Shown piece after piece: positions 520-51,458 of a stretch of 51,458 bases of DNA. Made by a program: the position numbers and the translations under genes. This DNA is from a virus. A model generated the notes under the pieces. The model was not told where the DNA came from. It was given only the letters and a program-made list of their open reading frames with translations, and did not search any database. The stretch spans positions 1 through 51,458 of the IMG/VR virus record IMGVR_UViG_3300028907_000006, one strand, 5' to 3'. How positions within the stretch are numbered: position 1 is the stretch's first letter; the number at the start of each line of letters is the position of its first letter.

Positions 520-656
520 AAACCTAAGCCACCCAAATTCATTCAATGACGTTAAAAAATACAAAGTGTAAAGAAGTATCGGCGATTGGTTTAAGGAGGA
601 GTTTCAATGACTACAATACCTTACTCATCAGAATTGTTTGGGGGAGGTGACGCTTG

Positions 657-1679
657 GTGAATAAATTTAGAGTGCCTTTTGAATTGAAGTCTTTGGACTT
701 GGATGAAGGCACGTTCGAGGGTTATGCTTCTGTATTTGGTAATGTTGATGACGGCGGCGATGTAATTGAGCCCGGGGCTTTTACCAAAACGCTACAAGAG
801 CGTGGGGGCAGAATCAAAATCTGTTGGAACCATGATCCGTATGAGCCCATTGGTACTCCAATTTCAATGACTGAGGACAGCAAAGGGCTTTTGGTGAAAG
901 GCAAAATCTCGAAAACTCGGAGGGGCATGGATGTCCTTACTCTTATGCGTGATGGCGTCATAAACGAGCTGTCTATTGGATACAGTCTTATCAAGCATAA
1001 GATGGATGGAAGAATCAGAAAAATCACCGAGCTAAAGTTGTGGGAGTTTTCGCCTGTTACTTGGGCGATGAATCCGCAAGCTCAAATATTGGGGGTGAAA
1101 TCGGTAATGCCTTTTGGAGATTTACCTTTGGCTGATGCTGGTGTGGGTTGGGATGGTGCGGCGGCTGAGAAGAATATTCGTGCTTGGGCTGGCGGACCAA
1201 ACAAAGACGATGTTGATTGGGAGAAATATGCTAAAGGGTTCTTTTGGGTGGACCCAGAGAACTCCGACAACTTCACCGGATACAAATTACCATTCGCAGA
1301 TGTTGTTGATGGGGAGCTAAAAGCAATTCCCGCAGGAATCTTTGCTGTTGCTGGCGCAGTACAAGGTTCTCGTGGAGGGGTTGATATAGATGATTCAGAG
1401 TTGGATAAGGTAAAAAGTGTTGTTGCGAAGTATTACGAGAAAATGGAAAAAACTCCTCCTTGGAGTAAGGAGGAAAAAGCTGGGCGTATGCTGTCTGGAG
1501 CTAATATCCAACTAATACGTTCAGCGGTATCTGCTCTTCAGGCACTTCTGGAAGCCGCTGAGCCAGTCACGGAACTAGAAGCCGCTGGAAAAGAAGCCGA
1601 CCAAAAGGTCACTTCTACAATCGAACAGCTTGACGCTGAGCTGAAACAATTTATTATTGAGAAAGGTAAGGTGAATTAG
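657..1679 (+). CDS. Prohead maturation protease (HK97 / S78 family) with a long C-terminal scaffold-like extension
   Basis: The N-terminal 150 aa (EGTFEGYASVFGNVDDGGDVIEPGAFTKTL, ICWNHD, ELSIGY) is typical of HK97 prohead proteases. It sits directly upstream of the major capsid gene. The GTG at 657 is 6 nt after GGAGGTGA; the TTG at 654 listed in the ORF track is too close to the RBS. Confidence 0.85.
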   Translation: MNKFRVPFELKSLDLDEGTFEGYASVFGNVDDGGDVIEPGAFTKTLQERGGRIKICWNHDPYEPIGTPISMTEDSKGLLVKGKISKTRRGMDVLTLMRDGVINELSIGYSLIKHKMDGRIRKITELKLWEFSPVTWAMNPQAQILGVKSVMPFGDLPLADAGVGWDGAAAEKNIRAWAGGPNKDDVDWEKYAKGFFWVDPENSDNFTGYKLPFADVVDGELKAIPAGIFAVAGAVQGSRGGVDIDDSELDKVKSVVAKYYEKMEKTPPWSKEEKAGRMLSGANIQLIRSAVSALQALLEAAEPVTELEAAGKEADQKVTSTIEQLDAELKQFIIEKGKVN

Positions 1680-1680: not shown

Positions 1681-2853
1681 TTGGAAGAAACCAAAAAAGC
1701 AATCCAAGGTTTGAACGACACTTGGGTCGAATTCAAGAAGATTTTGGAGAGGCAAGATGCAGAAATCAAAATGTTCGGGGCGGCGAAAGCCGAAACCCAA
1801 GAAATCCTGTCTAAACTCAACACCCGGCTGGATGACTTTGAAGTAAAGTTGAACCGGGCGTCACACCAGATCGCTTCTGCCGTTGTGGCTGAATCCAAAA
1901 TGTATCAAGAAGCGTTCGTGAAATGGGCTCGGTATGGTTCCGTGTCGGCTGACGAACAGAAATTCCTCCGGGTTCCCGAAGAACAAAAATCGCTGAATGC
2001 TACCGTCGGCAGTGCCGGGGGCTATCTGGTTACCGACGAATTTGTGGCCGAAATCCTGAAAAATGTTGTTGAGTTTTCTCCGATTCGCTCCATCGCCAGG
2101 GTTCGTACCACTTCGCAACGTTCCGTGAAAATTCCCAGCAGAACCGGCACCTTTTCGGCGGCTTGGGTCGCAGAGCAAGGCACCCGGTCTGAGACCACCG
2201 GATTGGCGTATGGCCTGAAAGAAATTCCCACCCATGAAGTGTATGCTCTGGTTGATATCTCCAAACAGGAGTTGGAAGACAGCGCATTCAATATGGAGGC
2301 AGAACTCCAAGCGGAGTTTGGCGAGCAATTCGGCGTGGCTGAAGGCACCGCATTTGTTTCCGGCACCGGCATCGGCAAGCCCGAGGGTTTCACCGTCAAT
2401 TCGGACATTTCCTACACCGCTGGCGGTCATGCATCTCAGCTCAATTCTGGGGATGCTCTTGTATCGCTGTTCTATGCACTCAAAGGCGTGTATGCTAATA
2501 ACGGTTCGTGGGTTCTGAACCGCACAACTCTCGGAGTTGTCCGCAAACTGAAAGACGGCACCGGGGCATACATTTGGCAACCCAACTATCAAGTAGGTCA
2601 ACCACCGTCCATTCTCGGTCGGCCTTATGTGGAAGCTACCGACATGGCCGACATCGGTGCAAATGCATTCCCGATTGCCTTTGGCGATTTCCGAAAAGGC
2701 TACATCATTGTTGATCGCACCGACATCGAAGTTCAGCGTGATCCCTATACCCAAGCAACTTCTGGTAATGTTCGGTTTATTGCCCGCAAACGGCTGGGCG
2801 GCCAGCTCGTTATTCCCGAAGCTGTACGGCTGTTGAAGATCGCCACTTCCTAA
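1681..2853 (+). CDS. Major capsid protein, HK97 fold
   Basis: 390 aa with an N-terminal coiled-coil delta-like region. Motifs GGYLVTDEF, SAAWVAEQGTR and FGDFRKGYIIVDR are typical of the HK97 MCP family. It follows the protease. Confidence 0.9.
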   Translation: MEETKKAIQGLNDTWVEFKKILERQDAEIKMFGAAKAETQEILSKLNTRLDDFEVKLNRASHQIASAVVAESKMYQEAFVKWARYGSVSADEQKFLRVPEEQKSLNATVGSAGGYLVTDEFVAEILKNVVEFSPIRSIARVRTTSQRSVKIPSRTGTFSAAWVAEQGTRSETTGLAYGLKEIPTHEVYALVDISKQELEDSAFNMEAELQAEFGEQFGVAEGTAFVSGTGIGKPEGFTVNSDISYTAGGHASQLNSGDALVSLFYALKGVYANNGSWVLNRTTLGVVRKLKDGTGAYIWQPNYQVGQPPSILGRPYVEATDMADIGANAFPIAFGDFRKGYIIVDRTDIEVQRDPYTQATSGNVRFIARKRLGGQLVIPEAVRLLKIATS

Positions 2854-2882: not shown

Positions 2883-3428
2883 TTGTCCTACAATAATGTT
2901 GATAACTACTTGGAACAAGGTGGCTCAACTTGGAAGATTGGCGGCCAACTCGATATTATCAGCGGTGGAGCGCAAACGGTTGAATCCGGGGGCACTCTTA
3001 CAGTTGAATCTGGTGGCGTAGCAAACATTGATTCCGGGGGCAAACTTACGGTTGACTCCGGGGGTCAAATTTTGTTCGGGGCTGGCGCCAAACTTTCTCA
3101 TGCTATTACTGCCGCATCTTCGGCTCAAACTCTGTCTCTGCCTGGGGTATACCAGATCAATGGAACTAGCACTTGGGTGGATGACGTCATAACTCTGCCG
3201 GCACCTACTACCAATGGCGAGTTCTTCGAGTTCTTCGCCAAAATTCCTACGTCAACCGCAAGTGTGGCTATTACCAGCACTGGACCCAATATTGTTAACT
3301 TCCTGGGTGGAGCTGGTGTGGTAATCAAACTTTTCGGCGGCGGCTACGCCAAACTTCAAGCTATGGGCTCCACTTGTTGGGGGGCGGTTATTACCGCATG
3401 TTCTAGCGGCTCTTATGTTGTTGCCTAG
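2883..3428 (+). CDS. Hypothetical structural protein with SGG-x-(L/V)TV(E/D)SGG repeats
   Basis: TTG start 5 nt after AAAGGGGGGAG. N-terminal repeats: IISGGAQTVESGGTLTVESGGVANIDSGGKLTVDSGGQ. It directly follows the MCP gene (decoration or fibre candidate). Confidence 0.55.
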   Translation: MSYNNVDNYLEQGGSTWKIGGQLDIISGGAQTVESGGTLTVESGGVANIDSGGKLTVDSGGQILFGAGAKLSHAITAASSAQTLSLPGVYQINGTSTWVDDVITLPAPTTNGEFFEFFAKIPTSTASVAITSTGPNIVNFLGGAGVVIKLFGGGYAKLQAMGSTCWGAVITACSSGSYVVA

Positions 3429-3472: not shown

Positions 3473-4294
3473 ATGACTGAAAACGTTATGGCTGAAGTGA
3501 CGACCGAGGCCAGGAAAAAGAAGGTAGCAATTGTTGGTTTTGCTGAAACATCTCGCCACATGGCTCCTTACTCGGATGAGTCTTTTGAAATTTGGGGTCT
3601 GAATGAGCTCTACATGCAGATTCCCAGGTGGACTCGCTGGTTTCAACTCCATTCAAGAGAAGTATTTGTTGATGACTTTTCAGATCGGGATAAGGAGCAT
3701 GTGGAACATCTTTCCAAGATGACGTGCCCCATCTATATGTGTCGCCATTACGAGGATATTCCCAACAGCATTCCATTTCCGCTTGAAGAGGCCATCAAAT
3801 ACTTTAGCCTGTGCCCCAAGCGTGAGGCTTGTAAGGTTGAAGGCAAAAGTTGTATGGCTTGTCGTGAAATGGATGCGTATTTCACAAACTCCATATCATA
3901 CATGATCGCTCTTGCGATTATGGAGGGGTTCGAGGAAATTCATGTGTATGGCGTCGACATGGCTCAAGATACTGAGTATGGTACGCAAAAACCCAGTTGC
4001 GAGTTCTTTATTGGCTGGGCTCGGGGTCAAGGCATTGAGGTAGTATTACCCAAAGAGGCAGATTTATGCCGCACCTTCTGCTATTACGGATATGAAAAAG
4101 AACCGCAGATCAAGCAAAAGTTCCGCTTGAAAAAAGATGAGATGGAACGGCGCATCAAGGAACATGAAGAAGAAATCAGAAAAATTGATGCGTCCATGCA
4201 AGATTTGACAAACAAAAAAGTTCTTCAACATCGGTTTATAGACCACTTGCGAGGAGGGTCACAAATTTGTGACTACTTTATTCGCAATTGGTAA
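3473..4294 (+). CDS. Hypothetical protein; candidate sialyl/nonulosonate-transferase-like enzyme (CstII/GT42- or Maf/DUF115-like architecture) with a C-terminal coiled coil
   Basis: Strong RBS (AGGAGGGG-N7-ATG). The N-terminal KKKVAIVGFAETS...EIWGLNELY and later YFTNSISYMIALAIMEGFEEIHVYGVDM parallel, from memory, CstII KKVIIAGNGPSL...DVFRCNQFY and RITSGVYMCAVAIALGYKEIYLSGIDF. The functional call is an inference. Confidence 0.45.
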   Translation: MTENVMAEVTTEARKKKVAIVGFAETSRHMAPYSDESFEIWGLNELYMQIPRWTRWFQLHSREVFVDDFSDRDKEHVEHLSKMTCPIYMCRHYEDIPNSIPFPLEEAIKYFSLCPKREACKVEGKSCMACREMDAYFTNSISYMIALAIMEGFEEIHVYGVDMAQDTEYGTQKPSCEFFIGWARGQGIEVVLPKEADLCRTFCYYGYEKEPQIKQKFRLKKDEMERRIKEHEEEIRKIDASMQDLTNKKVLQHRFIDHLRGGSQICDYFIRNW

Positions 4295-41285: not shown

Positions 41286-41340
41286 ATCTTTTTAGACTGG
41301 GTATATGGACGATTGGGGGTGGAGTTGGACGGAGTTGGGG

Positions 41341-41410: not shown

Positions 41411-41422
41411 AGTGTGAAAATA

Positions 41423-42036: not shown

Positions 42037-42342
42037 TTGTTTTTTCTGCCTAAAAATCGTAGCTACTTATACAATAAAAATATTGTAGAATACAAAAGAA
42101 TATATATAAAATATACGTTTTTTTAAGTGTAAAAAAATTGCTTTTAGAAAAAACTATAAAAAAAGTGAAAAAGGAAAATATAGGGTTTGTTGAAATTTTT
42201 TAATAGTCGTTTTTTATAAAAAGGAATTTGCTAAAAAAAACGTACCACATTTTTTTGAGTACTGCGAGAAGTAAGAAGGAATTATTGTAAAAATATCGAA
42301 TATTTTACTTAGTGAGAGTATGAGAGCGAGGAGGTTGGAGAT

Positions 42343-42750
42343 TTGGGTTGGTACCGGGCTACTGAGAGGGCATTATACCTATATTGGGGGGCAGACTTAA
42401 GGAAGAAATCTTTGGAACTAATGTTGGAGGAGATGAGTGATGGACGCATAACAGCAAATTATGAACTCAGAGAGTGGTCTTTCTCGGGTGTGGGCGGTGG
42501 AGTGGATAATATCGTTCTGGCTAAAATTAAGTTGGAAAGTGAATTGGCTAGAATCGAAAAGATAATAGAAATAGTGAGTGAGGCTCTCAACAGATTAGAG
42601 GAGGATGAGTTAAATTTGGTGAGAGCTGTGTATTGGGAAAAGAAAGGTTGGGAGGATGTATGTTGTGGAATGGGTATGGATAAAAATTCCTACTATAAGC
42701 GGAGGAGGGGCATAATCAAAAAATTGAGCTGGCTGTTGGGATTTGATTGA
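42343..42750 (+). CDS. ArpU/RinA-like late transcriptional activator (sigma-region-4-like)
   Basis: TTG after GAGGAGG. 135 aa immediately upstream of terS, as in many Bacillota phages. The C-terminal ...KNSYYKRRRGIIKKLSWLLG is typical of the family. Confidence 0.6.
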   Translation: MGWYRATERALYLYWGADLRKKSLELMLEEMSDGRITANYELREWSFSGVGGGVDNIVLAKIKLESELARIEKIIEIVSEALNRLEEDELNLVRAVYWEKKGWEDVCCGMGMDKNSYYKRRRGIIKKLSWLLGFD

Positions 42751-42757
42751 TTATGGA

Positions 42758-42809
42758 GGGAAAAAATCGGGAAAAAATCGGGAAAAAATCGGGAAAAAAT
42801 CGGGAAAAC
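42758..42809. repeat. Tandem 11-bp repeat GGGAAAAAATC x 4.7 (helically phased A6 tracts)
   Basis: Copies start at 42758, 42769, 42780 and 42791, with a partial copy at 42802. Confidence 0.9.
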
Positions 42810-42821
42810 TTTTGAGTGTTT

Positions 42822-42834
42822 TTAGTATATAATA
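42822..42834 (+). promoter_or_regulatory. Candidate late promoter -10 region (TTAGTATATAATA) downstream of the phased A-tracts
   Basis: TATAAT at 42828-42833. There is no canonical -35 (TTGAGT is only 10 nt away), consistent with activator dependence. Confidence 0.4.
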
Positions 42835-42863
42835 GATATAGTTGAATATATGTGGCTGTGGTT

Positions 42864-42884
42864 GATTGATGATTGATGATTGAT
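42864..42884. repeat. Tandem heptamer GATTGAT x 3 (TGA in all three frames)
   Basis: Read directly; located immediately upstream of the terS RBS. Confidence 0.85.
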
Positions 42885-42904
42885 GCTTGAGAGGAGGTGA
42901 GACT

Positions 42905-43420
42905 GTGGGTTATAAAGGTGCTGGTATTAGTCCTCCAGATCGCAAAATTTTTGGAACATATAGCAATGGGCTAGTTCTTGAGTTGTTGACTCCAGAAGTG
43001 AGTAAGAAAATTTGTAACTTGGTTCGTGTTGGGAACTACTTGGATACAGCGGCCGCAGCTTGTGGCGTTACCAGAGCTACGCTTCACCGATGGTTGCGTA
43101 TAGGAAACAAAGATTTAGAGATGGGCCGCAAAACAGTTCACTCCCGCTTTGTAAATCGGGTTCATAGAGTCATGGCTGAATCTGAACTTTTGTCTCTCGC
43201 AATGCTGAACGATCATGGGTTGAAATCGTGGCAAGCGGTTGCTTGGAAGATGGAGCGGAGATTCCCGGAACGTTGGGGGAAGAGCTACAAGGCTGAGATT
43301 GAATTGACTGGAAAAGATGGTGGTCCAATTGAGATCGGAGATGCTAGAAAACAACTCCTTGGCCGACTATTTGCGGATGAACCCAGTCTTGGGGAAACAG
43401 AAAATAGCGAGGATGAGTGA
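42905..43420 (+). CDS. terS: Terminase small subunit
   Basis: The GTG at 42905 is 5 nt after GAGGAGGTGA. Helix-turn-helix AAACGVTRATLHRWLRIG. The stop overlaps the terL start. Confidence 0.7.
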   Translation: MGYKGAGISPPDRKIFGTYSNGLVLELLTPEVSKKICNLVRVGNYLDTAAAACGVTRATLHRWLRIGNKDLEMGRKTVHSRFVNRVHRVMAESELLSLAMLNDHGLKSWQAVAWKMERRFPERWGKSYKAEIELTGKDGGPIEIGDARKQLLGRLFADEPSLGETENSEDE

Positions 43421-44636
43421 TTCTGAAGCATTAGAGTTGATGTATAATTGGTCTTTTTGGGCCAGGCCAAATCAAATTCCTCCTTCGGCTGTAGATTGGA
43501 GTACATGGTTGATATGTACCGGGCGTGGCTGGGGGAAAACTCGGACTGGTGCTGAGTGGGTGAGATGGTTGGCTGAAAGCGGTAAATTTGGGAGGATTGC
43601 TCTGGTCGGGGCTACGGCGGCTGACGTCAGAGATATCATGATTGAAGGAGACAGTGGGATAAAGGCTGTTTGTCCTCCATGGAACTATCCTAATTATGAG
43701 CCCAGCAAGCGGAGATTGACTTGGCCTAATGGCGTCCGGGCTATCGCATATTCTGCTGAAGAACCAGCCCGGTTGAGGGGGCCACAGCATCATGCGGCTT
43801 GGGCCGACGAATTGGCTAGTTGGAAATATCCTGAGACATACGATATGCTGTTGTTAGGGTTGCGGCTAGGGGTTAAGCCAAGAGTGGTAGTCACAACCAC
43901 TCCTAAACCAATCAAAATCATACGAGAATTGGTGAAAGACGACACCACCACAGTAACTACTGGGAGCACTTTTGAAAATCGAGCTAATCTGGCTAAGACA
44001 TTTCTAAATGAAGTCACAAAGAAGTATGAAGGCACTAGGCTCGGGCGCCAAGAATTGTATGCGGAAATTCTTGAAGATGTCGAGGGGGCTTTGTGGAATC
44101 GGGACATGCTGGAAGCTGTAAGGGTGTCTACAGTTCCAGACATGAAAAGAATTGTAGTTGCCGTTGATCCTTCGGTTTCTAACAATGAAAATTCGGCTGA
44201 GACTGGAATTATAGTTGTTGGTCTGGGGGTAGATGGTAATGGGTATATCATCGATGATAAAAGCATGGTAGGTTCTCCCGACGAATGGAGCAGTGAAGTC
44301 ATAGCTCTCTATAACAAACACAAAGCAGATCGAATTGTTGTTGAAGTTAATCAAGGTGGAGATTTGGTTGAGACTGTTTTGAGAACCAAATTCACGAGGG
44401 CGCCAATTAAGAAGGTTCATGCTTCCCGGGGCAAACAAACAAGAGCTGAGCCGGTGGTAGCTTTGTACGAACAAAAGAGAGTTAAACATATTGGATTTTT
44501 TCCTTTTCTGGAAGATCAACTCTGCTCTTGGGTCCCAGGAATAAGTAAGAGTCCAGACAGAATGGATGCTCTTGTTTGGGGGATTACAAGTTTGATGCTT
44601 GAAAATGAGCCGACTTTGCGGGTCAGGCGTTTATAA
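43413..44636 (+). CDS. terL: Terminase large subunit
   Basis: ATG at 43413 (GGATGAGTGA overlap with the terS stop). WSFWARPNQIPP...LICTGRGWGKTRTGAEW (Walker A) and a C-terminal RNaseH-like nuclease region (VAVDPS...). Confidence 0.9.
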   Translation: MSDSEALELMYNWSFWARPNQIPPSAVDWSTWLICTGRGWGKTRTGAEWVRWLAESGKFGRIALVGATAADVRDIMIEGDSGIKAVCPPWNYPNYEPSKRRLTWPNGVRAIAYSAEEPARLRGPQHHAAWADELASWKYPETYDMLLLGLRLGVKPRVVVTTTPKPIKIIRELVKDDTTTVTTGSTFENRANLAKTFLNEVTKKYEGTRLGRQELYAEILEDVEGALWNRDMLEAVRVSTVPDMKRIVVAVDPSVSNNENSAETGIIVVGLGVDGNGYIIDDKSMVGSPDEWSSEVIALYNKHKADRIVVEVNQGGDLVETVLRTKFTRAPIKKVHASRGKQTRAEPVVALYEQKRVKHIGFFPFLEDQLCSWVPGISKSPDRMDALVWGITSLMLENEPTLRVRRL

Positions 44637-44649
44637 GGGGGCGTGGGGG

Positions 44650-45429
44650 TTGAGAAAAATAACTCAGTTGTGTCTGGGTACAGTTCAACTTGGTATGCCT
44701 TATGTTACCAAAAAACCAAAATTGAAGGATTCATTGGAGATTCTTGCGTTTGCTGAGAGCGCAGGAATTTCTTGTTTTGATACAGCTCAAGCCTATGGTA
44801 CAGCGGAGGAGATTTTGGGTACATTCGGTATGGGTGGAGACAGAAAGGTGATTACCAAGTTACACCCGGATGCTACAAGGGTCGATATTCAACTGTCGTT
44901 GGATAGATTGGGTGTAAGTAAGGTGTTTGCTTTTTTGTTGCATCGGCCCAGCCATATGTATTCGTATGGAATCGCTCACCGTATGAGAGAGTTGAGAGAG
45001 CAGGGTTATTGCGATCATGTGGGAGTATCTGTGTATGATAAAGGAGATGCTATTTGGGCGGCTAATGCTGATTGGGTTAGCGCCATAGAATTTCCTTATA
45101 ACTTGTTGTGTAAGGAGCTGGATGATTCTCCCTTCTTCGACTTGGCGGCAGGGAAGGTGCTGATAGCAAGACAGCCATTCGCTAAAGGTGAATTGTTCCG
45201 CTGTGGGATGGACTTCTTTGGGGTGAATCGGGCTCAGGCGTGTCTGCAATTTGTTATGAATCATATACCCAGGTTCGACTATGTGGCCTTCGGGGTAGAT
45301 GATTTAAGACAATTGCAGGAGAATGTTGAGGGCTCAAAGAAAAGCGTGCCGATGATGGAATCCAATCGAATTTGGAGAGAATCATTGAAGCTCAACGCTT
45401 ATCTGCCGCCCAGTTTGTGGGCCAATTAG
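44650..45429 (+). CDS. Aldo/keto reductase-family oxidoreductase
   Basis: LGTVQLGMPY...SAGISCFDTAQAYGTAEEILG is the AKR N-terminal signature. TTG at 44650 after AAGGGGGCGTGGGGG. Confidence 0.65.
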   Translation: MRKITQLCLGTVQLGMPYVTKKPKLKDSLEILAFAESAGISCFDTAQAYGTAEEILGTFGMGGDRKVITKLHPDATRVDIQLSLDRLGVSKVFAFLLHRPSHMYSYGIAHRMRELREQGYCDHVGVSVYDKGDAIWAANADWVSAIEFPYNLLCKELDDSPFFDLAAGKVLIARQPFAKGELFRCGMDFFGVNRAQACLQFVMNHIPRFDYVAFGVDDLRQLQENVEGSKKSVPMMESNRIWRESLKLNAYLPPSLWAN

Positions 45430-46128
45430 ATGGGTGTTGTAGCTATCGTTCAAGCTCGACTAGGGTCAACTAGGTTGCCTGGAAAAGTTCTAATGGACTT
45501 GGAGGGGCAACCCATGTTGTATAGACAACTTGAAAGAATCAAAAGAAGTAGGTTGTTGGATGATGTGGTGGTAGCAACCAGCTGTTTGGAGAAAGATAAT
45601 GCTTTGGAAGAGTTCTGCTGGCGTGTAGGGGTTGCATGCTACCGGGGCTCAGAGAAGGATGTTCTGAGTAGGTATTTGGCTACCGCTTATCATATTGGGC
45701 TTTCTGATGGTGATAGTATAGTTCGATTGACTGCAGATTGTCCGTTGACTGATTGGCGCATGATAGATCGGGTTATACTGAACCACAAGAAGTATGGAGC
45801 AGACTATACGTCAAATGTAATTCCTCCTACTTATCCTGATGGATTGGATGTAGAAGTTTTTACACTTGATACATTGGAGAAAGCCTGGATTCATAACAAT
45901 AAAGTTCATTGCGAAGATTGTTCGGAACATGTTACGACCCACATGAAAGATTTGAAATACTTCAAGACCATAAGTGTAGTGGGTGAAGAAGATTTGTCTA
46001 GGCTGAAGTGGTCGGTAGATACTATGGACGATTTGATGTTTGTGAGGGGGGTGTATAAAAAGTTGTTTAAGTCCAATCCCGACTTCGGGGCAGAGGAAAT
46101 TTTGGAGCTGTATGGCAATCGAATTTGA
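45430..46128 (+). CDS. SpsF/COG1861-type cytidylyltransferase (acylneuraminate cytidylyltransferase-like; candidate CMP-sugar synthetase)
   Basis: VAIVQARLGSTRLPGKVL N-terminal motif. Confidence 0.7.
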   Translation: MGVVAIVQARLGSTRLPGKVLMDLEGQPMLYRQLERIKRSRLLDDVVVATSCLEKDNALEEFCWRVGVACYRGSEKDVLSRYLATAYHIGLSDGDSIVRLTADCPLTDWRMIDRVILNHKKYGADYTSNVIPPTYPDGLDVEVFTLDTLEKAWIHNNKVHCEDCSEHVTTHMKDLKYFKTISVVGEEDLSRLKWSVDTMDDLMFVRGVYKKLFKSNPDFGAEEILELYGNRI

Positions 46129-46168
46129 CTGGATACAATAAGAGAGTGTAAATGAAGGAGGGGCAATT

Positions 46169-47416
46169 GTGAATTTTTCCGAGTCAGACGTGGCGTTGGA
46201 AAGAGCTTTACAAGTTATTCCAAATGGGACATGTACGTTCTCAAAATCTCGAACCATGCTCCCGGTCGGGCATAGCCCATTTTATGCAGACAGAGGATTT
46301 GGCGGTCATCTGTGGGACATTGATGATAATGAATTTTTGGACTTGACTATGGGGCTAACTGCGGTCACTCTCGGGTATAGACACAAAAGAGTGGACCAAG
46401 CAGTTATGGCTCAAGTAAAAAGGGGAGGAGCTATTTTCTCTCTGCCTCAAAATTTGGAAATTACCGTGGCTGAACGAATAATTGATATGGTTCCTTGTGC
46501 CGAGATGGTGAGATTTGGCAAGAATGGGTCTGATGTAACTGCTGGAGCAGTAAGATTGGCTCGATATGTTACTGGGCGAGATATGGTGTTGTGTTGCGGC
46601 TACCATGGTTGGCAGGATTGGTACATCGGCACTACCGGGAGGAATGGGGGCGTGCCGGCGGTTGTATCGGAGTTGACTAAACAATTTCGGTACAATGATA
46701 TTCTTCACCTCACTGTTCTGTTGGAGAAGTATGAAGGCCAAGTTGCTTGCGTGATTATGGAGCCAATGAATAGGGTTTTTCCCGTTCCTGGCTTTTTGCA
46801 ATCGGTACAAAATTTGTGTAAGAAATATGGCGTGATATTTATTTTGGATGAAGTTATTACCGGATTCCGTTTTGCAAATGGCGGGGCTCAGGAGTATTTT
46901 GGAATTGTTCCTGATATGTGTACTCTTGGAAAAGGGATTGCCAATGGGTATCCTCTATCAGCTGTTTGCGGCAAACGAGAATTGATGGAGGAGTTCTCCA
47001 AGATACACTTCTCATTCACCTACGCCAGTGACTCGATTGCTTTAACAGCGGCTAATACTACGTTGTTGGAGTACAAGTATGGAGATGTCTGTGAGAAGTT
47101 AGCTGAGCGTGGAGAAAAGTTGAAGACGGAGTTAAACAAGAGTATTCGGGAGATTGGGATCACGCATTTAATTTCTTCGGTCAGCGGCCATCCGGCTTGG
47201 TCTCATTTCAACTTCAAAGATGATGTGGTTAAAAGCGAGTTTTTGAAGCAAGTACACTCTCTTGGAATATTGACTGCAGGTACAAATAATTTGTGCTATA
47301 TGCATACAGACGCAGATATTGATTATGCTCTATGTATGTACGAGATAGCATTTGAGCGTTTGGCCTCTCTTGATTGGACTAAAGCTGATTGCTTGGTTGA
47401 GAGGGGGGTCAGATAA
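46169..47416 (+). CDS. Class-III PLP-dependent aminotransferase (glutamate-1-semialdehyde aminomutase-like)
   Basis: GTG after GAAGGAGGGG. DEVITGFRF and the PLP-lysine region CTLGKGIANGYP. Confidence 0.75.
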   Translation: MNFSESDVALERALQVIPNGTCTFSKSRTMLPVGHSPFYADRGFGGHLWDIDDNEFLDLTMGLTAVTLGYRHKRVDQAVMAQVKRGGAIFSLPQNLEITVAERIIDMVPCAEMVRFGKNGSDVTAGAVRLARYVTGRDMVLCCGYHGWQDWYIGTTGRNGGVPAVVSELTKQFRYNDILHLTVLLEKYEGQVACVIMEPMNRVFPVPGFLQSVQNLCKKYGVIFILDEVITGFRFANGGAQEYFGIVPDMCTLGKGIANGYPLSAVCGKRELMEEFSKIHFSFTYASDSIALTAANTTLLEYKYGDVCEKLAERGEKLKTELNKSIREIGITHLISSVSGHPAWSHFNFKDDVVKSEFLKQVHSLGILTAGTNNLCYMHTDADIDYALCMYEIAFERLASLDWTKADCLVERGVR

Positions 47417-47946
47417 TGAAAGAAGTATCCTTCAAGGCGTTGAAAAAAGAGGACATGGCTCAGATCGTGGAATGGAGAAATTCTACTGTTGGTGTATTGC
47501 GTACTCCATTCTTGATGACTAAAGATATGCAGGAGGAGTTCTATGAAAGAACGGTCTGTGATCGTGGGGCTGATTCCAGATATTTCGCTATTCATTTTGA
47601 TGGTTCTCTGGTTGGTATGGCAGGCGTAAACAACATATCTTGGGAGAACCGCAATGGAGAAATCTCTTTGTTAGTCAATCCGAAGTTGCGGGGCAAAGGG
47701 ATCGGCTCTATGGCTGTTTTGGAAATTTTGCGTATCGGATTCAACTGCATGAACTTGGAGAATATCTATGGCGAGTGCTATTTCAGCAATCGGGCTGGAA
47801 TAAAGTTCTGGGAATCGCAAATTGAAAGGTTTCATGGATACACGGCTATCCTTCCCAACAGAAAGTTCTTTGGAGGAGAATACCACGACTCATTGTACTT
47901 CTCCTTTAATCGTAAAACTGTTTGGGAGGGGGGCGAACGTGTATGA
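47416..47946 (+). CDS. GNAT N-acetyltransferase (PseH-like)
   Basis: L.KEDMAQIVEWRNS......P and the GNAT core RGKGIGS. TAATG overlap with the upstream stop. Confidence 0.65.
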   Translation: MKEVSFKALKKEDMAQIVEWRNSTVGVLRTPFLMTKDMQEEFYERTVCDRGADSRYFAIHFDGSLVGMAGVNNISWENRNGEISLLVNPKLRGKGIGSMAVLEILRIGFNCMNLENIYGECYFSNRAGIKFWESQIERFHGYTAILPNRKFFGGEYHDSLYFSFNRKTVWEGGERV

Positions 47947-48911
47947 GGCTCAAATTTATTGCTGAGATGAGCGCAAACCACAACGGTTCTTTGGAGAGGG
48001 CGTTAAAGATCGCTGAAATGGCCGCTGGAGCTGGCTGTTTTGCGCTGAAGCTCCAAACATACACTCCCGAAGAAATTACAATGGACCCAGAGCTGAGGAA
48101 AATTTATGAAGTAGGACAAACGCCCAGGGAATGGCACAAAGATATTTTCAATCATTGTAAGGTGCTAGGCATACGCTGTTTTTCGTCCCCATTCAGCGTT
48201 GGTGCCGTCGATTTTCTGGAACAATTTGAGCCCTGGGCGTACAAAATATCCAGCTTTGAGATTGGGGATTTGGAGTTGGTAAAAGCCGTAGCCAAAACAA
48301 AGCGGAACGTTGTTATGTCTATTGGAATGGCGTCGAAGCTGGAAATTCAATTGGCTTTGGATACGCTGAGGGAATATGGGGCGGCGTCAATAACTCTATT
48401 GAAATGTACTTCGGCTTATCCTGCTCCGGTCGAGAATATGAATTTGATTACATTGCTTGAAATGAAAAGGTTGTATAAAACCGAGGTGGGAATATCAGAC
48501 CACAATTTATCCCATTTGCCTTCGCTAGTGGCTATTTCACTTGGGGCTACTATGGTTGAAAAACACTTTACGTTGAAGCGGAGCGATGGTGGGATTGACT
48601 CCATGTTTTCGATTGAGCCCGGGGAGATGGTTGATTTAATCGCTCAAGCCGGTTGGGTTGAAAAGATTGCGGGCAAAGTCCATTTTGGTCCCACTCCCGG
48701 AGAACGTGTGGATTTGAAAAGATCGCTACATGTTGTTGAGGATTTGAAGAAAGGCGATGCGCTAGGATTCAACAACGTAAAGGCTCTCAGGCCGGCTGGA
48801 GGGTTAGCCCCCAAGACTTTATACAGCATACTCGGGGCTCATGTAAATAAAGATGTATCTGCTGGCTCTCCGTTGACGATAGACATGGTTGAATTCGGGA
48901 GGGTTAAATAA
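47943..48911 (+). CDS. NeuB/PseI-family nonulosonic-acid synthase (PEP-condensing) with a C-terminal SAF-like domain
   Basis: FIAEMSANHNGSLERALKIAEMAAGAG..ALKLQTY and ISDH. The ATG at 43 of 47943 overlaps the GNAT stop (ATGA). Confidence 0.8.
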   Translation: MRLKFIAEMSANHNGSLERALKIAEMAAGAGCFALKLQTYTPEEITMDPELRKIYEVGQTPREWHKDIFNHCKVLGIRCFSSPFSVGAVDFLEQFEPWAYKISSFEIGDLELVKAVAKTKRNVVMSIGMASKLEIQLALDTLREYGAASITLLKCTSAYPAPVENMNLITLLEMKRLYKTEVGISDHNLSHLPSLVAISLGATMVEKHFTLKRSDGGIDSMFSIEPGEMVDLIAQAGWVEKIAGKVHFGPTPGERVDLKRSLHVVEDLKKGDALGFNNVKALRPAGGLAPKTLYSILGAHVNKDVSAGSPLTIDMVEFGRVK

Positions 48912-49894
48912 TGAGGGGGGCTACAGTTTTAATCACTGGCGGCACAGGGTCATTCGGAAAAGCATTTGTAAAACACATTTTGAATTTTGGATATGGCGTT
49001 AAAAAAATCATTGTCTTATCTCGGGATGAGCTCAAGCAATCGGAAATGGCTGTGGAGTTTAACAATGACGACAGGCTAAGGTTCTTTATTGGTGATGTCC
49101 GTGATAAAGATCGTTTAATTAGGGCATTTTACGGAGTGGATTATGTTATTCATGCGGCGGCTTTGAAGCGAATCGAGGTGGGTGAATATAATCCAGGAGA
49201 ATTTCTGAAGACTAATGTGTTGGGTACACAAAATGTTGTTGAGGCGGCAATAACTTGTGGCGTCAAAAAGTGTATGTTACTGAGTACAGATAAAGCCTGT
49301 GCTCCAGTTAACACATATGGGAAAACAAAGGCGTTGGCTGAATCCCTTTTTGTTGCGGGCAATTCCTACTCGGGCATGAATTTGCCGAGATTTTCTGTTG
49401 TTAGATACGGTAATGTGCTTGGTAGCAGGGGTAGTGTAATCCACCTATTCAAGGAGCAAGCTAAAACCGGGACAATAAAGATAACAGATTTGGGAATGAC
49501 TCGGTTTTGGATCACTCTCGACAGCGCAGTACAGTTTGTATTGGATTGTCTCTGCGTTATGAAGGGTGGAGAAATTTTTGTACCCAAACTCCCGAGTATG
49601 AGGGTTATGGACTTAGCTATGGCGATTGCCCCTAACACAAAAACCGAGGTGATTGGGGTTCGTCCGGGCGAGAAGATTCATGAGTATATGATAAACAAGG
49701 ATGAATCCCGCCATGCTTTGGATGATATGTCTAGGTACATTATTTATCCAGAGTATCAATTTTGGGGGCAAACGGCCTATTCTGGAGTTCCTGTACCTGA
49801 AGGTTTTGAATACTGTAGCCATTTGAATGACGTATGGTTGAGCGTGAAGGAGTTGAAGGAGGTTGTTTCAAAAGATAAGGGGTTTGTGGTATAA
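48911..49894 (+). CDS. pseB: UDP-GlcNAc 4,6-dehydratase (PseB/FlaA1/CapD-type SDR)
   Basis: VLITGGTGSFGKAF, LSRDELKQ, RFFIGDVRD and NTYGKTKALAESLF (YxxxK). Confidence 0.8.
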   Translation: MRGATVLITGGTGSFGKAFVKHILNFGYGVKKIIVLSRDELKQSEMAVEFNNDDRLRFFIGDVRDKDRLIRAFYGVDYVIHAAALKRIEVGEYNPGEFLKTNVLGTQNVVEAAITCGVKKCMLLSTDKACAPVNTYGKTKALAESLFVAGNSYSGMNLPRFSVVRYGNVLGSRGSVIHLFKEQAKTGTIKITDLGMTRFWITLDSAVQFVLDCLCVMKGGEIFVPKLPSMRVMDLAMAIAPNTKTEVIGVRPGEKIHEYMINKDESRHALDDMSRYIIYPEYQFWGQTAYSGVPVPEGFEYCSHLNDVWLSVKELKEVVSKDKGFVV

Positions 49895-51077
49895 GCAATC
49901 TCAATCGTTTAGGGCCACAATAATACAATTGGCTCGGAGGGCTATTTGGTCCCCAGTAAATTACGAGTCATTAGCCAAGGAGGGTTACGGTCAGAACGTA
50001 TATGTATTTGCTTGCGTCAGGCAGATCGCTATGGCGGCTTCAGGAATCAACTGGGTGCTGTATCAAAAAGGAAAATCGTTGAAGGAGATCGAGAATCACC
50101 CTTTGATTGACCTGTTACAGAGACCCAATCCAGACCAGGGATTCAGCAGGTTCTTGGAGAATGTAATTGGCTATCTTATGTTGTCGGGCAACTCCTATAT
50201 TGAGAGTGTATCTCCAACAACTGGTCCTCCGAGAGAGTTATATGTGCTGAGGCCAGATCGTATGAGGGTTATTCCTGGAAACTCCATACAGCCTGTGGCC
50301 GGATATGAGTACAGTGTAGGAATGAGTAAAGTTCCATTTGATGCGAAAACTGTGCTCCATTTGAAGTTGTTTAATCCGTTGGATGATTGGTACGGTATGT
50401 CGCCACTTCAGGCGGCGGCTCGGTCGGTAGATCAGAACAACGAGAGCAAAGCCTGGAACGTGGCTCTGTTGCAAAATTTCGCTCAACCTGCAGGAGTATT
50501 TAAGACAGAGCAAAACTTGGATGACGAGCAGTACAACAGGCTTCAGGGGGAGTTCAACTCCAAATATCCGGGGTCACCTAATGCTGGCAGGGCAATGTTA
50601 TTAGAGGCAGGAATGTCCTGGGAAAGCATAAGTCTATCTCCAGCAGATATGGCTTGGATAGAGGGTCAAAAGTTGTCTGCTAGAGAAATCGCCATAGCGT
50701 TCGGAGTTCCTCCAGAGATGATTGGAGACAATACCAATAAAACGTATTCCAACTACCAAGAAGCCAGATCAGCATTCTATGAAGAAACGATATTGCCCCT
50801 GTTGGATTGGATTCGAGATGAGTGGAATAATTGGTTAGTTCCACTTTTTGGAGACAATCTCTATTTGGATTACGACCGGGATGATATTGAGGCACTTCAA
50901 GAATCTCGTGACGCCACTTGGGCCAGAGTTCAAAAATCTTGGTGGATAACACTCAATGAGGCAAGATCAGCTACTGGTTACGACGATGACCCAGATTTCG
51001 GCGACATGTATCAATGGCAGTTGAATCCAAAAGCTCCTTCTGCGGAAACAGAAACAAAAAGCAATTTCCCTTTTTAG
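49863..51077 (+). CDS. Portal protein (HK97 family)
   Basis: GNSYIE, LFNPLDDWYGMSPLQAA and IAFGVPPEMIG are typical of Phage_portal. The start is uncertain (TTG 49863 overlaps the pseB-like 3' end). Confidence 0.85.
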   Translation: MFQKIRGLWYKQSQSFRATIIQLARRAIWSPVNYESLAKEGYGQNVYVFACVRQIAMAASGINWVLYQKGKSLKEIENHPLIDLLQRPNPDQGFSRFLENVIGYLMLSGNSYIESVSPTTGPPRELYVLRPDRMRVIPGNSIQPVAGYEYSVGMSKVPFDAKTVLHLKLFNPLDDWYGMSPLQAAARSVDQNNESKAWNVALLQNFAQPAGVFKTEQNLDDEQYNRLQGEFNSKYPGSPNAGRAMLLEAGMSWESISLSPADMAWIEGQKLSAREIAIAFGVPPEMIGDNTNKTYSNYQEARSAFYEETILPLLDWIRDEWNNWLVPLFGDNLYLDYDRDDIEALQESRDATWARVQKSWWITLNEARSATGYDDDPDFGDMYQWQLNPKAPSAETETKSNFPF

Positions 51078-51458
51078 GCGATGCCGCTGGTGACAGGGCG
51101 GCGTATTGGAAGGCATATGATTCTTCGAGAGAAGAATATGTGCCTTTTTTTCAGAAGTCAATCGCAAAAATTTTCAGGAGCGAATTGACTTTATTGAAAC
51201 GTGCGATATTGGCCGGAGAAGAAATTTCTACAGCCATAAAAGACAAACCGTGGATGTTGATGTATTCTTCCTTGGCTTCAGAAATCGTGCCCCGATTCGC
51301 CCAAGATTCTTTTGATTCATTGATGCAAGTAAAAAGTAAATGGCTGGGTTGGAATGCTACTGCTAAAGTCTATGCCTTGGCGTATAGTGCTAAGTTTGTA
51401 AAAGACATAACTGATACAACCAAAAGCCAAATTCAAGGAATTTTAGACCAAGGCTATA
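51014..51458 (+). CDS. Head morphogenesis protein (SPP1 gp7/Mu F-like), N-terminal part; continues at nt 128 after the 127-bp terminal repeat
   Basis: The frame opens at 50990 and the first start is the ATG at 51014, overlapping the portal 3' end. There is no stop before the window end, and the sequence 51332..51458 equals 1..127 in the same frame. Confidence 0.65.
   Translation, partial: MAVESKSSFCGNRNKKQFPFLGDAAGDRAAYWKAYDSSREEYVPFFQKSIAKIFRSELTLLKRAILAGEEISTAIKDKPWMLMYSSLASEIVPRFAQDSFDSLMQVKSKWLGWNATAKVYALAYSAKFVKDITDTTKSQIQGILDQGY
51332..51458. repeat. Terminal direct repeat, identical to 1..127
   Basis: Direct comparison of the two ends. Confidence 0.95.

Follow-up and report, generated by a model that had tools for sequence, protein, structure and literature searches.

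An incomplete pseudaminic-acid-type gene cassette between the terminase and portal genes of a phage, and a putative sialyltransferase-like gene beside its capsid gene

The bacterial biosynthesis of pseudaminic acid (Pse) relies on the enzymes PseB, PseC, PseH, PseG, PseI and PseF, among which PseB performs the first committed step and PseI joins PEP to a hexose to give a nine-carbon acid. A variant of the corresponding gene cluster, ordered PseB-PseC-AKR-CT-AT3-PseG-PseH-PseI and containing a trio made of an aldo/keto reductase (AKR), a cytidylyltransferase (CT) and an aminotransferase (AT3), occurs in flagellin, capsule and O-antigen loci. In such clusters, transferases of the Maf/PseD-PseE type (DUF115) move CMP-Pse or CMP-Leg to Ser/Thr residues of a structural protein. 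The trio is also visible in the O-antigen locus of Legionella pneumophila Sg6/Sg12 (PMC3694923), and a fusion of an SpsF-type CT with an AKR in a Vibrio Pse cluster has been proposed to replace NeuA (PMC7371886).

The sialyltransferases Cst-I and Cst-II of Campylobacter jejuni belong to the CAZy family GT42 and use CMP-Neu5Ac as a donor. With respect to phages, glycosylation of the virions of mycobacteriophages Che8 and Rita reportedly depends on ordinary GT families and on nucleotide sugars of the host. According to the account of Freeman et al. 2023 given in PMC11256854, phage-encoded transferases put glycans on the major capsid proteins of both phages, which provides a precedent for virion glycosylation. 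In Acinetobacter baumannii prophages, EpaA, in which a CTP_transf_3 cytidylyltransferase is fused to an aldo/keto reductase, and EpaB convert Pse to 8-epi-Pse (PMC12053666).

The window considered here, i.e., the whole stretch of DNA that was analysed (51,458 nucleotides), begins and ends with an exact 127-nt repeat, so that the assembly closes into a circle, its true length being 51,331, and the phage genome is complete. Six co-directional, overlapping ORFs, ordered AKR-CT-AT3-GNAT-PseI-PseB, occupy positions 44650-49894 on the + strand between terL and an HK97-type portal gene (NCBIfam matches are given as bits versus the curated cut-off):

42905..43420, + strand, probable small terminase subunit, 171 aa (position; also called as a gene in L120, an independent assembly)
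43389..44636, + strand, large terminase subunit, terL (Pfam Terminase_6N 85 bits, Terminase_6C 48.9 bits; gene call)
44650..45429, + strand, aldo/keto reductase AKR, first cassette gene (PF00248 Aldo_ket_red, 67 bits)
45430..46128, + strand, SpsF/COG1861-like cytidylyltransferase CT (PF02348 CTP_transf_3, 106.7 bits)
46169..47416, + strand, class-III (GSA-aminomutase-like) PLP aminotransferase AT3 (PF00202 Aminotran_3, 166.4 bits)
47416..47946, + strand, GNAT N-acetyltransferase in the PseH slot (best family PseH TIGR03585, 43 vs 93.1)
47943..48911, + strand, pseudaminic acid synthase PseI, PseI/NeuB family (TIGR03586, 345.9 vs 340.25; NeuB and SAF domains)
48911..49894, + strand, inverting UDP-GlcNAc 4,6-dehydratase PseB (TIGR03589, 443.8 vs 407.75; Polysacc_synt_2, 308 bits)
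49863..51077, + strand, HK97-type portal (TIGR01537 portal_HK97, 215.6 vs 112; PF04860, 292 bits)

An earlier note, made from the letters of this DNA, had described these six ORFs and assigned each to a family; all six are present at these coordinates, and the assignments were borne out by profile searches (Pfam, NCBIfam). Direct reading of the junctions likewise confirmed the overlaps it had reported, namely TAATG at 47414 (AT3/GNAT) and 48909 (PseI/PseB), and ATGA at 47943 (GNAT/PseI). Since this ATGA couples GNAT to PseI, the start of PseI lies at 47943 (322 aa), and a start at 47922 was rejected. The terL ORF, open from 43317 with a called start at 43389, stops at 44636; AKR starts with TTG at 44650 behind a Shine-Dalgarno-like GGGGG run, CT with ATG at 45430, immediately 3' of the AKR stop, and AT3 with GTG at 46169, preceded by AAGGAGG. 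The widest intergenic gap within the cassette measures 40 nt, and the portal gene, starting with TTG at 49863, overlaps the end of PseB (49894) by 32 nt.

Relatives that share this portal type have terL next to the portal gene; in 16 IMG/VR loci in which a recognisable portal homologue occurs together with a terL relative, 30-165 nt separate the two genes. The view that the cassette was inserted at a junction that is normally tight thus holds, as does its placement within the late packaging/head operon. This operon starts with the small terminase gene, whose product has no match in Pfam and is identified from its position only. Promoter-like or terminator-like sites are not enriched in the region 41000-51458, and the cassette would be co-transcribed with the head genes.

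PseB and PseI are equivalog-level matches to the bacterial enzymes, PseI by a margin of just 5.6 bits. GNAT falls below the cut-off of PseH, and the sugar could be some other 5,7-diamino nonulosonate. The CT scores only 29.7 against a cut-off of 205.7 for the canonical PseF (TIGR03584); as a CT of this type is the sole cytidylyltransferase of bacterial clusters such as L117, it is probably a CMP-nonulosonate synthetase acting as a functional analogue of PseF. The AKR, which opens the conserved AKR-CT-AT3 trio, reaches 199.8 bits against an HMM built from the AKRs of bacterial clusters, and its translation contains the motifs FDTAQAY, ITKL and LLHRP, which, read by eye, are compatible with an intact D-Y-K-H tetrad. 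Similarly, the PLP-lysine motif TLGKG was read in AT3, whose best NCBIfam match is the GSA-aminomutase-like PRK06209 (354 vs 486) and whose nearest non-self relatives among 5.8 billion proteins searched are at most 55% identical. Bacterial locus L117, annotated gene by gene, served as the reference for tblastn identities, which amount to 55% for PseB, 45% for CT, 44% for PseI, just 27% for AKR, and 20% between GNAT and PseH. The GNAT shares 42-48% identity with GNATs adjoining homologues of a gene of the head module, p273, in phage loci L152, L194 and L203, and by these identities is assigned to a phage-type lineage.

PseC, PseG and Maf are absent from the entire window (tblastn; HMMs built for this analysis, run at E<=1), in agreement with the earlier note for the first two. 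Without PseC and PseG the phage pathway is incomplete and cannot run alone as written. The idea of a self-sufficient six-gene pathway has accordingly to be abandoned, since bacterial clusters containing the trio nearly always have both genes (PseC in 67/80, PseG in 61/80). Nor is the "extra" reductase a peculiarity of the phage: around bacterial AT3, an AKR was found in 71 of the 80 loci and a CT in 68, and the trio is a conserved bacterial unit. The regular presence of PseC beside the trio also argues against bacterial AT3 as a substitute for PseC; in phage loci L213 and L194, AT3 recurs without PseC, and it might be the aminotransferase in phages. No candidate gene in the phage accounts for the UDP-sugar hydrolase step (PseG).

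The consensus order in bacteria is PseB-PseC-AKR-CT-AT3-PseG-(PseH)-PseI, and the cassette is collinear with a locus from a Bacillota MAG (L075, Maf-AKR-CT-AT3-PseG-PseH-PseI-PseB-PseC). With the bacterial copies found, its genes share no more than 27-58% identity. The best explanation of these resemblances would be a host-derived, long-resident and trimmed copy of a bacterial Pse cluster like those in Bacillota flagellin-glycosylation islands. The trio and a GNAT in the PseH slot are common to both, whereas the phage copy lies in a head operon, lacks PseC, PseG and Maf, and is associated with a transferase of another family. Compared with EpaA/EpaB, the phage also bears Pse-tailoring genes, with the two domains of EpaA side by side but on separate genes, AKR preceding CT; their partner is a class-III aminotransferase instead of an SDR dehydrogenase, and PseB and PseI, the core enzymes, are encoded as well. 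Instead of belonging to a prophage moron, the cassette occupies a late head operon in a phage that is apparently lytic, and its proposed target is the virion, not the capsule.

The transferase is encoded in the head module, which continues across the ends of the window:

51185..51458, continuing at 128-519, + strand, Mu F-like head morphogenesis gene (translation across the junction; PF04233 in L120)
654..1679, + strand, prohead serine protease, S78 (PF04586, 96.4 bits)
1681..2853, + strand, HK97-fold major capsid protein, candidate glycan acceptor (PF05065, 267.6 bits)
2883..3428, + strand, 181-aa protein rich in Gly, Ser and Thr, containing SGG repeats and encoded between the capsid gene and p273 (composition, AF2)
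3473..4294, + strand, p273, GT42-like putative CMP-nonulosonate glycosyltransferase (AF2 model/Foldseek and family profile)
4315-4740, 4750-5058 and 5198-5590, + strand, three small Ser/Thr-rich proteins directly 3' of p273

The Mu F-like gene resumes at 128 because the ends of the window are the 127-nt assembly repeat. Two genes 3' of the major capsid gene, p273 is a new finding, a previously unrecognised enzyme with a predicted sialyltransferase-like fold beside a capsid gene. As a single sequence it matches nothing in Pfam, PHROG or PDB. Searched with Foldseek against the PDB, its AF2 model (pLDDT 82) retrieves Cst-II/Cst-I, the only solved structures that match it, as its top 12 hits (prob 1.00, E 3.6e-6 to 2.6e-4), the first match beyond them appearing at E 0.13; TM-scores with Cst-II are modest (0.36-0.46). 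A profile of the p273 family, which comprises about 4,460 clusters at 50% identity (E<=1e-10), ranks Cst-II/Cst-I as the top 8 among PDB sequences (best E 9e-4), in an alignment that covers the nucleotide-binding half only and superposes the shared motifs KKV-I-G, F-[VW]-x-x-N-x-x-Y and Y-M-x-A-x-A-I-x-x-G-[YF]-x-E-I-x-x-x-G-[IV]-D. Sequence identity is 14-18%; p273 differs from Cst-I/Cst-II by GFAxS in place of GNGPS, an Ala aligned with Tyr156 and a C-terminal helix of 60 residues, and no counterpart of the Cst-II catalytic base His188 was located in it. Structural matches in BFVD include a GT29 protein and a giant-virus DUF115 protein, a likeness to the Maf/PseD-PseE transferases whose role is proposed for p273, although p273 is less than half their size and shows no sequence match to them (tblastn, own HMM, Pfam). 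Taken together, p273 is a putative GT42-like transferase, proposed to use the cassette product as its donor.

Six sugar genes and a sialyltransferase-like p273 beside the capsid gene suggest that the phage probably glycosylates its own head with this sugar, and the link to virion glycosylation drawn in the earlier note, whose overall interpretation is partly supported, thereby gains independent support. Late-expressed glycosylation of a head protein with a nonulosonic acid, by the cassette and p273, is given somewhat better than an even chance. With the cassette translated within the late packaging/head operon, PseB would commit UDP-GlcNAc to the pathway, GNAT would acetylate the 4-amino intermediate, PseI would condense PEP with the free hexose and the SpsF-like CT would make the CMP-activated nonulosonate, with AKR and AT3 probably tailoring the sugar. 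Transamination at C4 (PseC) would be supplied by the host or done by AT3, and UDP hydrolysis (PseG) would be supplied by the host. During head assembly, p273 would consume the CMP-sugar and O-glycosylate the capsid protein or one of the small Ser/Thr-rich proteins encoded nearby. Its presumed donor (CMP-Pse-like) and protein acceptor differ from the CMP-Neu5Ac and lipooligosaccharide of the Cst enzymes, and, as distinct from Che8 and Rita, this phage encodes much of the donor pathway, would use a nonulosonic acid and has a sialyltransferase-like transferase.

The 181-aa protein (20% Ser+Thr, just 5 homologues found, a low-confidence all-beta AF2 model with pLDDT 61) is possibly a head decoration protein and a candidate acceptor; in L123, L194, L205 and L212, too, this place is taken by small S/T-rich proteins. 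The three small proteins 3' of p273 (PHROGs 5707 and 5417, function unknown) contain 23%, 28% and 22% Ser+Thr, compared with 9-14% for most replication/enzyme genes, and are candidates for further acceptors or decoration proteins.

Nonulosonate genes lie close to p273 homologues in 13 of 80 IMG/VR loci, the majority of p273-bearing loci having none in the available flank. They are absent from 330 kb across 35 terL-relative loci, and NeuB-like genes occur in only 3 of 50,697 GenBank phage records. Four other phage lineages share the architecture of p273 in a head module with nonulosonate-type genes:

L123: MTase-NeuB, then terL-portal ... MCP-p154-p273
L173/L210: oxidoreductase-CT, then Mu-type portal ... 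MCP-?-PseB-MTase-p273
L194: AT3, then scaffold-MCP-p146-p273-GNAT
L213: PseB-NeuB-GNAT-AT3, then P22-type portal ... MTase-p273

In several unrelated head modules p273 homologues stand 1-2 genes 3' of the capsid gene, a constant place which is hard to explain for an enzyme acting on the host surface; one homologue from a cultured phage precedes terS instead. Late remodelling of a host structure (flagellin, S-layer, capsule or LPS, for instance), in which the products of the cassette and p273 would attach a nonulosonate or modify one already there, is in this respect rather unlikely; it would mask receptors, excluding competing phages or keeping progeny off debris. Such remodelling would agree with the lipooligosaccharide, non-protein substrate of Cst-I/Cst-II, with the Maf/PseD flagellin transferases adjoining the parent cluster type in bacteria, and with epaA-epaB, the only experimentally proven phage-borne Pse genes, which modify the host capsule (PMC12053666). 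EpaAB is, however, prophage-borne, whereas here no integrase was found among the ORFs scanned and the genome carries a full replication and nucleotide module, which favours a lytic phage, as this one probably is, over lysogenic conversion; late expression would also leave little time for surface turnover.

A plain auxiliary metabolic cassette, boosting the host Pse flux, e.g., for a Pse-dependent structure needed by the phage, with p273 unrelated, is considered improbable. A review lists pseI among the auxiliary genes of marine phages (PMC6359870), and the two missing steps make the cassette dependent on the host pathway, but p273 and nonulosonate genes co-occur across lineages, and the sole structural relatives of p273 use CMP-nonulosonates.

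The attachment of a nonulosonate to hypermodified bases of the phage DNA appears very improbable. The DNA itself is probably hypermodified, as genes of the early region include one for a 5-hmdU DNA kinase (PF18748, E 3.4e-22), one for a thymidylate-synthase homologue and one weakly matching an amino-acid:DNA-transferase; these genes, however, belong to the replication module on the opposite strand, whereas the cassette and p273, as parts of the head module, would be expressed late, and p273 accompanies capsid genes in phages. To our knowledge, no nonulosonate-DNA adduct has been described.

An assembly chimera or bacterial contamination, which the odd location of a metabolic gene block within a metagenomic contig might evoke, is effectively refuted, and excluded as far as sequence alone allows, by the circular assembly, by starts and stops that overlap at both sides, by analogous layouts in other phages, by the recovery of both cassette junctions at 99.7-100% identity in three other assemblies from different runs, and by a phage-like codon usage. 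The same phage was found in ENA ERZ27257507 and in the Logan assemblies of SRR8554428 and SRR8554429. The codon usage of the cassette correlates with that of the structural genes at r=0.83 (structural versus replication genes, 0.77), and its GC content is 0.441, versus 0.451 for the structural genes.

The six genes of the cassette lie on the + strand between the stop codon of terL (44636) and the start of the HK97-type portal gene (49863), in the order aldo/keto reductase (AKR), SpsF-like cytidylyltransferase (CT), class-III aminotransferase (AT3), GNAT, PseI and PseB. The cassette and the head genes to which it is joined are organized as follows:

44650, + strand: TTG start of AKR, 14 nt past the terL stop, with a G-rich ribosome-binding run upstream (junction read)
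45430, + strand: ATG start of CT, immediately past the AKR stop (junction read)
46169, + strand: GTG start of AT3, with AAGGAGG upstream (junction read)
47414, 47943 and 48909: coupled junctions TAATG (AT3/GNAT), ATGA (GNAT/PseI) and TAATG (PseI/PseB)
49863, + strand: start of the portal gene, overlapping the end of PseB by 32 nt
654-1679: S78 protease, head module
1681-2853: HK97-fold capsid, head module
3473-4294, + strand: p273, a protein of 273 aa with a Rossmann-like N-terminus, two genes past the major capsid gene

The genome is closed, since 127 nt are identical at both ends of the window (1-127 and 51332-51458, an exact direct repeat), giving a true length of 51,331 bp; the repeat arises where the assembly of a circular or terminally redundant genome overlaps itself, and a Mu F-like gene spans the junction. 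The genes of the HK97-type head module stand in their usual order, from terL through the HK97-type portal and the S78 protease to the HK97-fold capsid, the cassette being its sole interruption. The placement of the cassette in the late transcription unit, as proposed in the earlier note, agrees with the coupled junctions, the overlap with the portal gene and a consensus scan of 41000-51458, in which promoter-like and terminator-like sites showed no excess over shuffled sequence; taken together, these features argue for a single late operon.

The cassette is not an assembly artefact. The AT3 protein recurs unchanged in three further assemblies, namely ENA ERZ27257507 and the Logan assemblies of SRR8554428 and SRR8554429, whose contigs match the window at 99.7-100% identity across both cassette borders. 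With respect to its position, relatives of terL at 39-70% identity are encoded by 35 IMG/VR loci, and in all 16 that have a recognisable portal homologue this gene follows terL after 30-165 nt, so that the survey of relatives bears out the suggestion that the cassette is an insertion at the terL-portal junction. A locus with 9.8 kb between the two matches (L029) looked like a second insertion, until Pfam revealed the ordinary order of terL, MuF, protease, capsid and tail genes with the portal elsewhere; the junction is thus not a general cargo hotspot. Except for a 300-nt match in terL, blastn gave no nucleotide relatives of the region in GenBank phages. The cassette has clearly been long resident in the phage lineage, judging from a GC content and a codon usage that match those of the structural genes (codon-usage correlation r=0.83, vs 0.77 between structural and replication genes); consistently, a search of 5.8 billion proteins gave no relative of AT3, itself excepted, above 55% identity.

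Profile searches of each ORF against NCBIfam and Pfam families confirmed the assignments made from motifs for all six genes, with scores of GNAT and CT below the PseH and PseF cut-offs. PseB, the last gene, is an inverting UDP-GlcNAc 4,6-dehydratase (TIGR03589, 443.8 bits for a cut-off of 407.75), and PseI, the fifth, exceeds its cut-off by a narrow margin (TIGR03586, 345.9 vs 340.25 bits) and scores 225.7 bits with the NeuB_NnaB model, below the cut-off of 399.65. The fourth gene, GNAT, has PseH as its top NCBIfam family, at 43 bits for a cut-off of 93.1; it stands where PseH stands in the collinear arrangement and shares 20% identity with the bacterial PseH of an Anoxybacteroides cluster (L117), vs 42-48% with the GNATs located beside p273 homologues in three other phage loci (L152, L194, L203). 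CT, the second gene, matches CTP_transf_3 (106.7 bits) and stays far below the cut-off of the canonical PseF model (29.7 vs 205.7 bits), AT3, the third, is a class-III aminotransferase closest to the GSA-aminomutase-like PRK06209, and the first gene, AKR, matches the aldo/keto reductase family. The reported lack of canonical PseC and PseG was upheld: no window ORF matched PseC, the DegT-type C4 aminotransferase, by tblastn or with an HMM of 66 bacterial PseC sequences (E<=1), and neither the UDP-sugar hydrolase PseG nor Maf was detected anywhere in the window by tblastn or HMM. Two steps are therefore missing from the pathway that the phage encodes, the UDP hydrolysis and, unless AT3 performs it, the C4 transamination.

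AT3 homologues of about 50% identity were taken from 80 bacterial genomes spread over many phyla, and HMMs were built from these loci. Within 10 kb of AT3, AKR occurs in 71 loci, CT in 68, PseC in 67, PseI in 64, PseB in 63 and PseG in 61; most often the genes are arranged as PseB-PseC-AKR-CT-AT3-PseG-(PseH)-PseI. The Anoxybacteroides cluster comprises, gene by gene, a Maf/PseD-like protein, a methyltransferase, PseB, AKR, CT, AT3, PseG, PseH, PseI and PseC, with every canonical enzyme above its cut-off, canonical PseF absent and CT as the sole cytidylyltransferase. In a Bacillota MAG (L075) the order is Maf-AKR-CT-AT3-PseG-PseH-PseI-PseB-PseC, which is exactly that of the phage cassette once PseG, PseC and Maf are removed. 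The reductase, which the earlier note had treated as an extra gene pointing to a variant sugar, is accordingly no phage-specific oddity, AKR-CT-AT3 being a conserved bacterial unit. The idea that AT3 supplies the aminotransferase of the pathway survives in part: in 67 of the 80 bacterial loci AT3 is found together with PseC and works alongside it, so that it is not simply a stand-in for PseC there, and a straightforward replacement is not proven; AT3 may nevertheless fill this role in phages, where it recurs without PseC.

Gene fusions suggest that the members of the trio are functionally linked. P0225 (L209, 228-2246), a natural fusion of a CTP_transf_3 CT with AT3 from a bacterial flagellar-region locus, offers Rosetta-stone evidence that both act together; the genes after it encode a second cytidylyltransferase, a Gfo/Idh/MocA oxidoreductase and a DegT aminotransferase, and the locus also hints that the CT of the trio may not always be the sole CMP-transferase. 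EpaA, from an A. baumannii prophage, is a CT-AKR fusion that turns Pse into 8-epi-Pse together with the dehydrogenase EpaB (PMC12053666), and a similar SpsF-CT+AKR fusion from a Vibrio Pse cluster has been proposed as a substitute for NeuA (PMC7371886). The trio also occurs in the O-antigen locus of L. pneumophila Sg6/Sg12 (PMC3694923), and no experimental work on it was found in the literature. Like EpaA, the cassette combines CTP_transf_3 and Aldo_ket_red domains, as separate adjacent genes instead of a fusion; unlike EpaA/EpaB, it has no adh_short_C2-type gene corresponding to EpaB, and its third member is a class-III aminotransferase. We infer that CT produces the CMP-sugar, with AKR and AT3 tailoring the nonulosonate through reduction of a keto intermediate and/or transamination.

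A candidate for the use of this sugar is p273. Single-sequence searches with p273 gave no match in Pfam, PHROGs or PDB, and its more than 625 homologues are all annotated as 'hypothetical', the signal coming only from the family alignment, the structure model and the profile. The AlphaFold2 model, built from 43 homologues (pLDDT 82), retrieved with Foldseek the Campylobacter jejuni sialyltransferases Cst-II/Cst-I (GT42) as the top twelve PDB matches (prob 1.00, E 3.6e-6 to 2.6e-4), with TM-scores of only 0.36-0.46, and the first non-Cst match at E 0.13. Independently of the model, the family profile HMM placed Cst-II/Cst-I as the top 8 among PDB sequences (best E 9e-4), the motifs KKVaivGfaeS, FeiWglNelY and YMiAlAi-eGf-EIhvyGVD aligning with KKVIIAGNGPS, FDVFRCNQFY and YMCAVAIALGYKEIYLSGID of Cst-II. 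The protein is thus predicted to adopt the Cst-like modified GT-A/Rossmann fold, of the GT42 type, found in CMP-nonulosonate-binding enzymes. The HMM alignment with Cst-II covers the nucleotide-binding half only and ends before His188, no equivalent of the catalytic histidine being located, and a conserved Ala occupies the position aligned with Tyr156; in Cst-II, His188 is the catalytic residue and Tyr156/Tyr162 are the phosphate-binding residues. The family-invariant H60, E168, Y169 and Q172 are candidates for the catalytic or phosphate-binding residues of p273. Among predicted viral structures its neighbours are uncharacterised phage proteins, a GT29 protein and a giant-virus DUF115 protein. 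An exhaustive profile search returned 5,427 clusters (50% identity) at E<=1e-3, including 4,460 at E<=1e-10. The sole homologue in a GenBank phage, XAN61349.1 of the Microcystis phage Mvi-Yong1342-1 (L211, 11905-12708; 33% identity), lies just before terS, and its annotation as a 'type 11 methyltransferase' is probably wrong; this cultured phage could serve as an experimental model for a p273 homologue.

The function proposed for p273 derives from its genomic company. Among 80 p273-bearing IMG/VR loci, many of which are short, 13 have NeuB/PseI-like, PseB, CT, AT3 or phage-type GNAT genes in the available flank; of the approximately 25 with at least 8 kb upstream, 9 do. No nonulosonate gene occurs in the 35 loci (330 kb) related by terL, and NeuB-like genes were detected in only 3 of 50,697 GenBank phage records. 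As in the present genome, where p273 sits inside the structural module, a post-capsid placement is found in L123, L173, L194, L205 and L212. The gene order in the phage loci annotated in detail reads as follows:

L123: methyltransferase and NeuB, then terL, portal, MuF ... capsid, a 154-aa protein, p273
L173/L210: Gfo/Idh/MocA oxidoreductase and CT, then Mu-type portal, MuF, protease, E-type capsid, one gene, PseB, methyltransferase, p273
L194: AT3, then Gp46-like scaffold, capsid_4-type capsid, a 146-aa protein, p273, GNAT
L213: PseB-NeuB-GNAT-AT3 directly before a P22-type portal, with p273 past the head genes
L205 and L212: capsid followed by small proteins and p273; sugar genes not seen

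The first four lines share one architecture on differing head-gene backgrounds, and the phages of the last may draw on a CMP-sugar of the host. Neither PseC nor PseG turned up in any of these p273-bearing phage loci. From this association with NeuB, PseB, CT, AT3 and GNAT genes, it is suggested that p273 may transfer a nonulosonate from a CMP donor. In three further IMG/VR loci (L134, L175, L199), the p273 homologue is directly preceded by a short NeuB-like gene (about 230-260 aa) that apparently has no SAF domain, and the two could form a minimal two-gene unit of synthase plus transferase. Two AT3 homologues considered as contig-mates of p273 homologues, P0185 and P0208, both turned out to belong to bacterial capsule or Pse loci.

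Possible acceptors occur around p273. The 181-aa protein encoded between the capsid gene and p273 contains 20% Ser+Thr, and the three proteins past p273 22-28%, vs 9-14% in most enzymes and replication proteins; equally Ser/Thr-rich small proteins, barely alignable to each other, fill the same slots in other phages. This composition fits candidate O-glycosylated head decoration proteins. The model of the 181-aa protein, built from 5 sequences (pLDDT 61), was too poor for meaningful fold matches.

Upon expression of the late operon (terS-terL-cassette-portal-MuF-protease-capsid-p181-p273, p181 being the 181-aa protein), PseB, GNAT, PseI and CT, assisted by PseC and PseG of the host, or by AT3 as the aminotransferase, would increase the supply of a CMP-activated Pse-type sugar, which AKR and AT3 may modify, and p273 would move it onto Ser/Thr residues of the capsid or a decoration protein during head assembly. 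The main rival, a conversion of the host surface by a lysogen, has its precedent in EpaAB, which works in this way; it is less likely here because the scanned ORFs include no integrase and the genome carries DNA polymerase A, a primase-helicase, an SNF2 helicase and nucleotide-metabolism genes. Extending the capsid reading, the large and unnamed p273 family of sialyltransferase-like phage enzymes, for which neither Pfam nor PHROGs has a model, and the variable nonulosonate genes of head modules would represent a capsid 'sialylation' system widespread among environmental tailed phages, with AT3 engaged in a PseC-independent route or in the making of a new nonulosonate, a proposal we regard as possible while stopping a little short of calling it probable. 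If it is true, the heads of many phages would be covered with bacterial sialic-acid-like sugars.

Nonulosonic acids are best known as virulence and motility glycans of bacteria and, to our knowledge, the only phages with demonstrated virion glycosylation are a few actinobacteriophages, which use ordinary sugars. The enzyme families concerned are known, as are phage-borne Pse genes, namely EpaAB and pseI, the latter noted as a phage auxiliary gene (PMC6359870), and capsid glycosylation, described for mycobacteriophages (PMC11256854). What seems new is the nonulosonate pathway in a head operon combined with a sialyltransferase-like gene by the capsid gene, recurring across lineages, with a virion glycan as its candidate product; no description of such a combination was found in the literature, which is a weak absence, subscription journals being thinly covered. 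If confirmed, it would assign a function to a large group of phage proteins now annotated as 'hypothetical' and introduce a new class of protein-acting CMP-nonulosonate transferases, which are sought for glycoengineering and Pse conjugates. The capsids of soil, groundwater and sediment phages may then bear an acidic glycan coat, which could influence adsorption, stability, aggregation and recognition. Attention is also drawn to AKR-CT-AT3, a trio conserved in thousands of bacterial Pse clusters and yet uncharacterised, and the capsid protein, the neighbouring small proteins, p273 and the cassette constitute a concrete minimal system for testing.

The remaining head-tail module is standard, with connector and tail genes, tape measure, C1 peptidase and Amidase_3 lysin. 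In the head-neck region (6573-9315), a 312-aa protein with four SKDG(V/M)NFVKKG repeats and weak matches to GH32/GH43/GH130 beta-propeller hydrolases precedes a 595-aa Ser/Thr-rich repetitive protein, and the pair is possibly a glycan-binding or depolymerase fibre. Another group of genes probably forms a thymidine hypermodification module, and the virion DNA is probably hypermodified:

26712-27401, - strand: thymidylate-synthase homologue
27815-28393, - strand: 5-hmdU DNA kinase (PF18748, E 3.4e-22)
28368-29411, - strand: amino-acid:DNA transferase, a weak match (PF18724, 24.5 bits, just below the cut-off of 26.2)
26712-29411 (- strand) and 39863-40342: extent of the module, which also includes a dCMP deaminase

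The host may belong to the Bacillota, according to weak hints: in the lysis region (20088-22088 and 23877-24296) the fusion of a papain-like C1 peptidase with a Cu_amine_oxidN1 domain and the Amidase_3 lysin, close by a small secreted protein bearing a dockerin/EF-hand-like motif, the ArpU/DUF722-like regulator gene at 42343-42750, and the collinearity with the cluster of the Bacillota MAG. The nearest cultured relative of the capsid protein is that of a Rhizobium phage (46%). Upstream of the late operon, an AT-rich stretch (41300-42900; GC 0.35-0.37, GC skew up to 0.51) contains perfect tandem repeats of 24 nt x 2.9 at 41341-41410 and 11 nt x 4.6 at 42758-42808, together with the palindrome CGAACGTACGTTCG at 41423 and at 41793, the latter reported for both strands; these elements are possibly late-promoter, regulator-binding or packaging signals.
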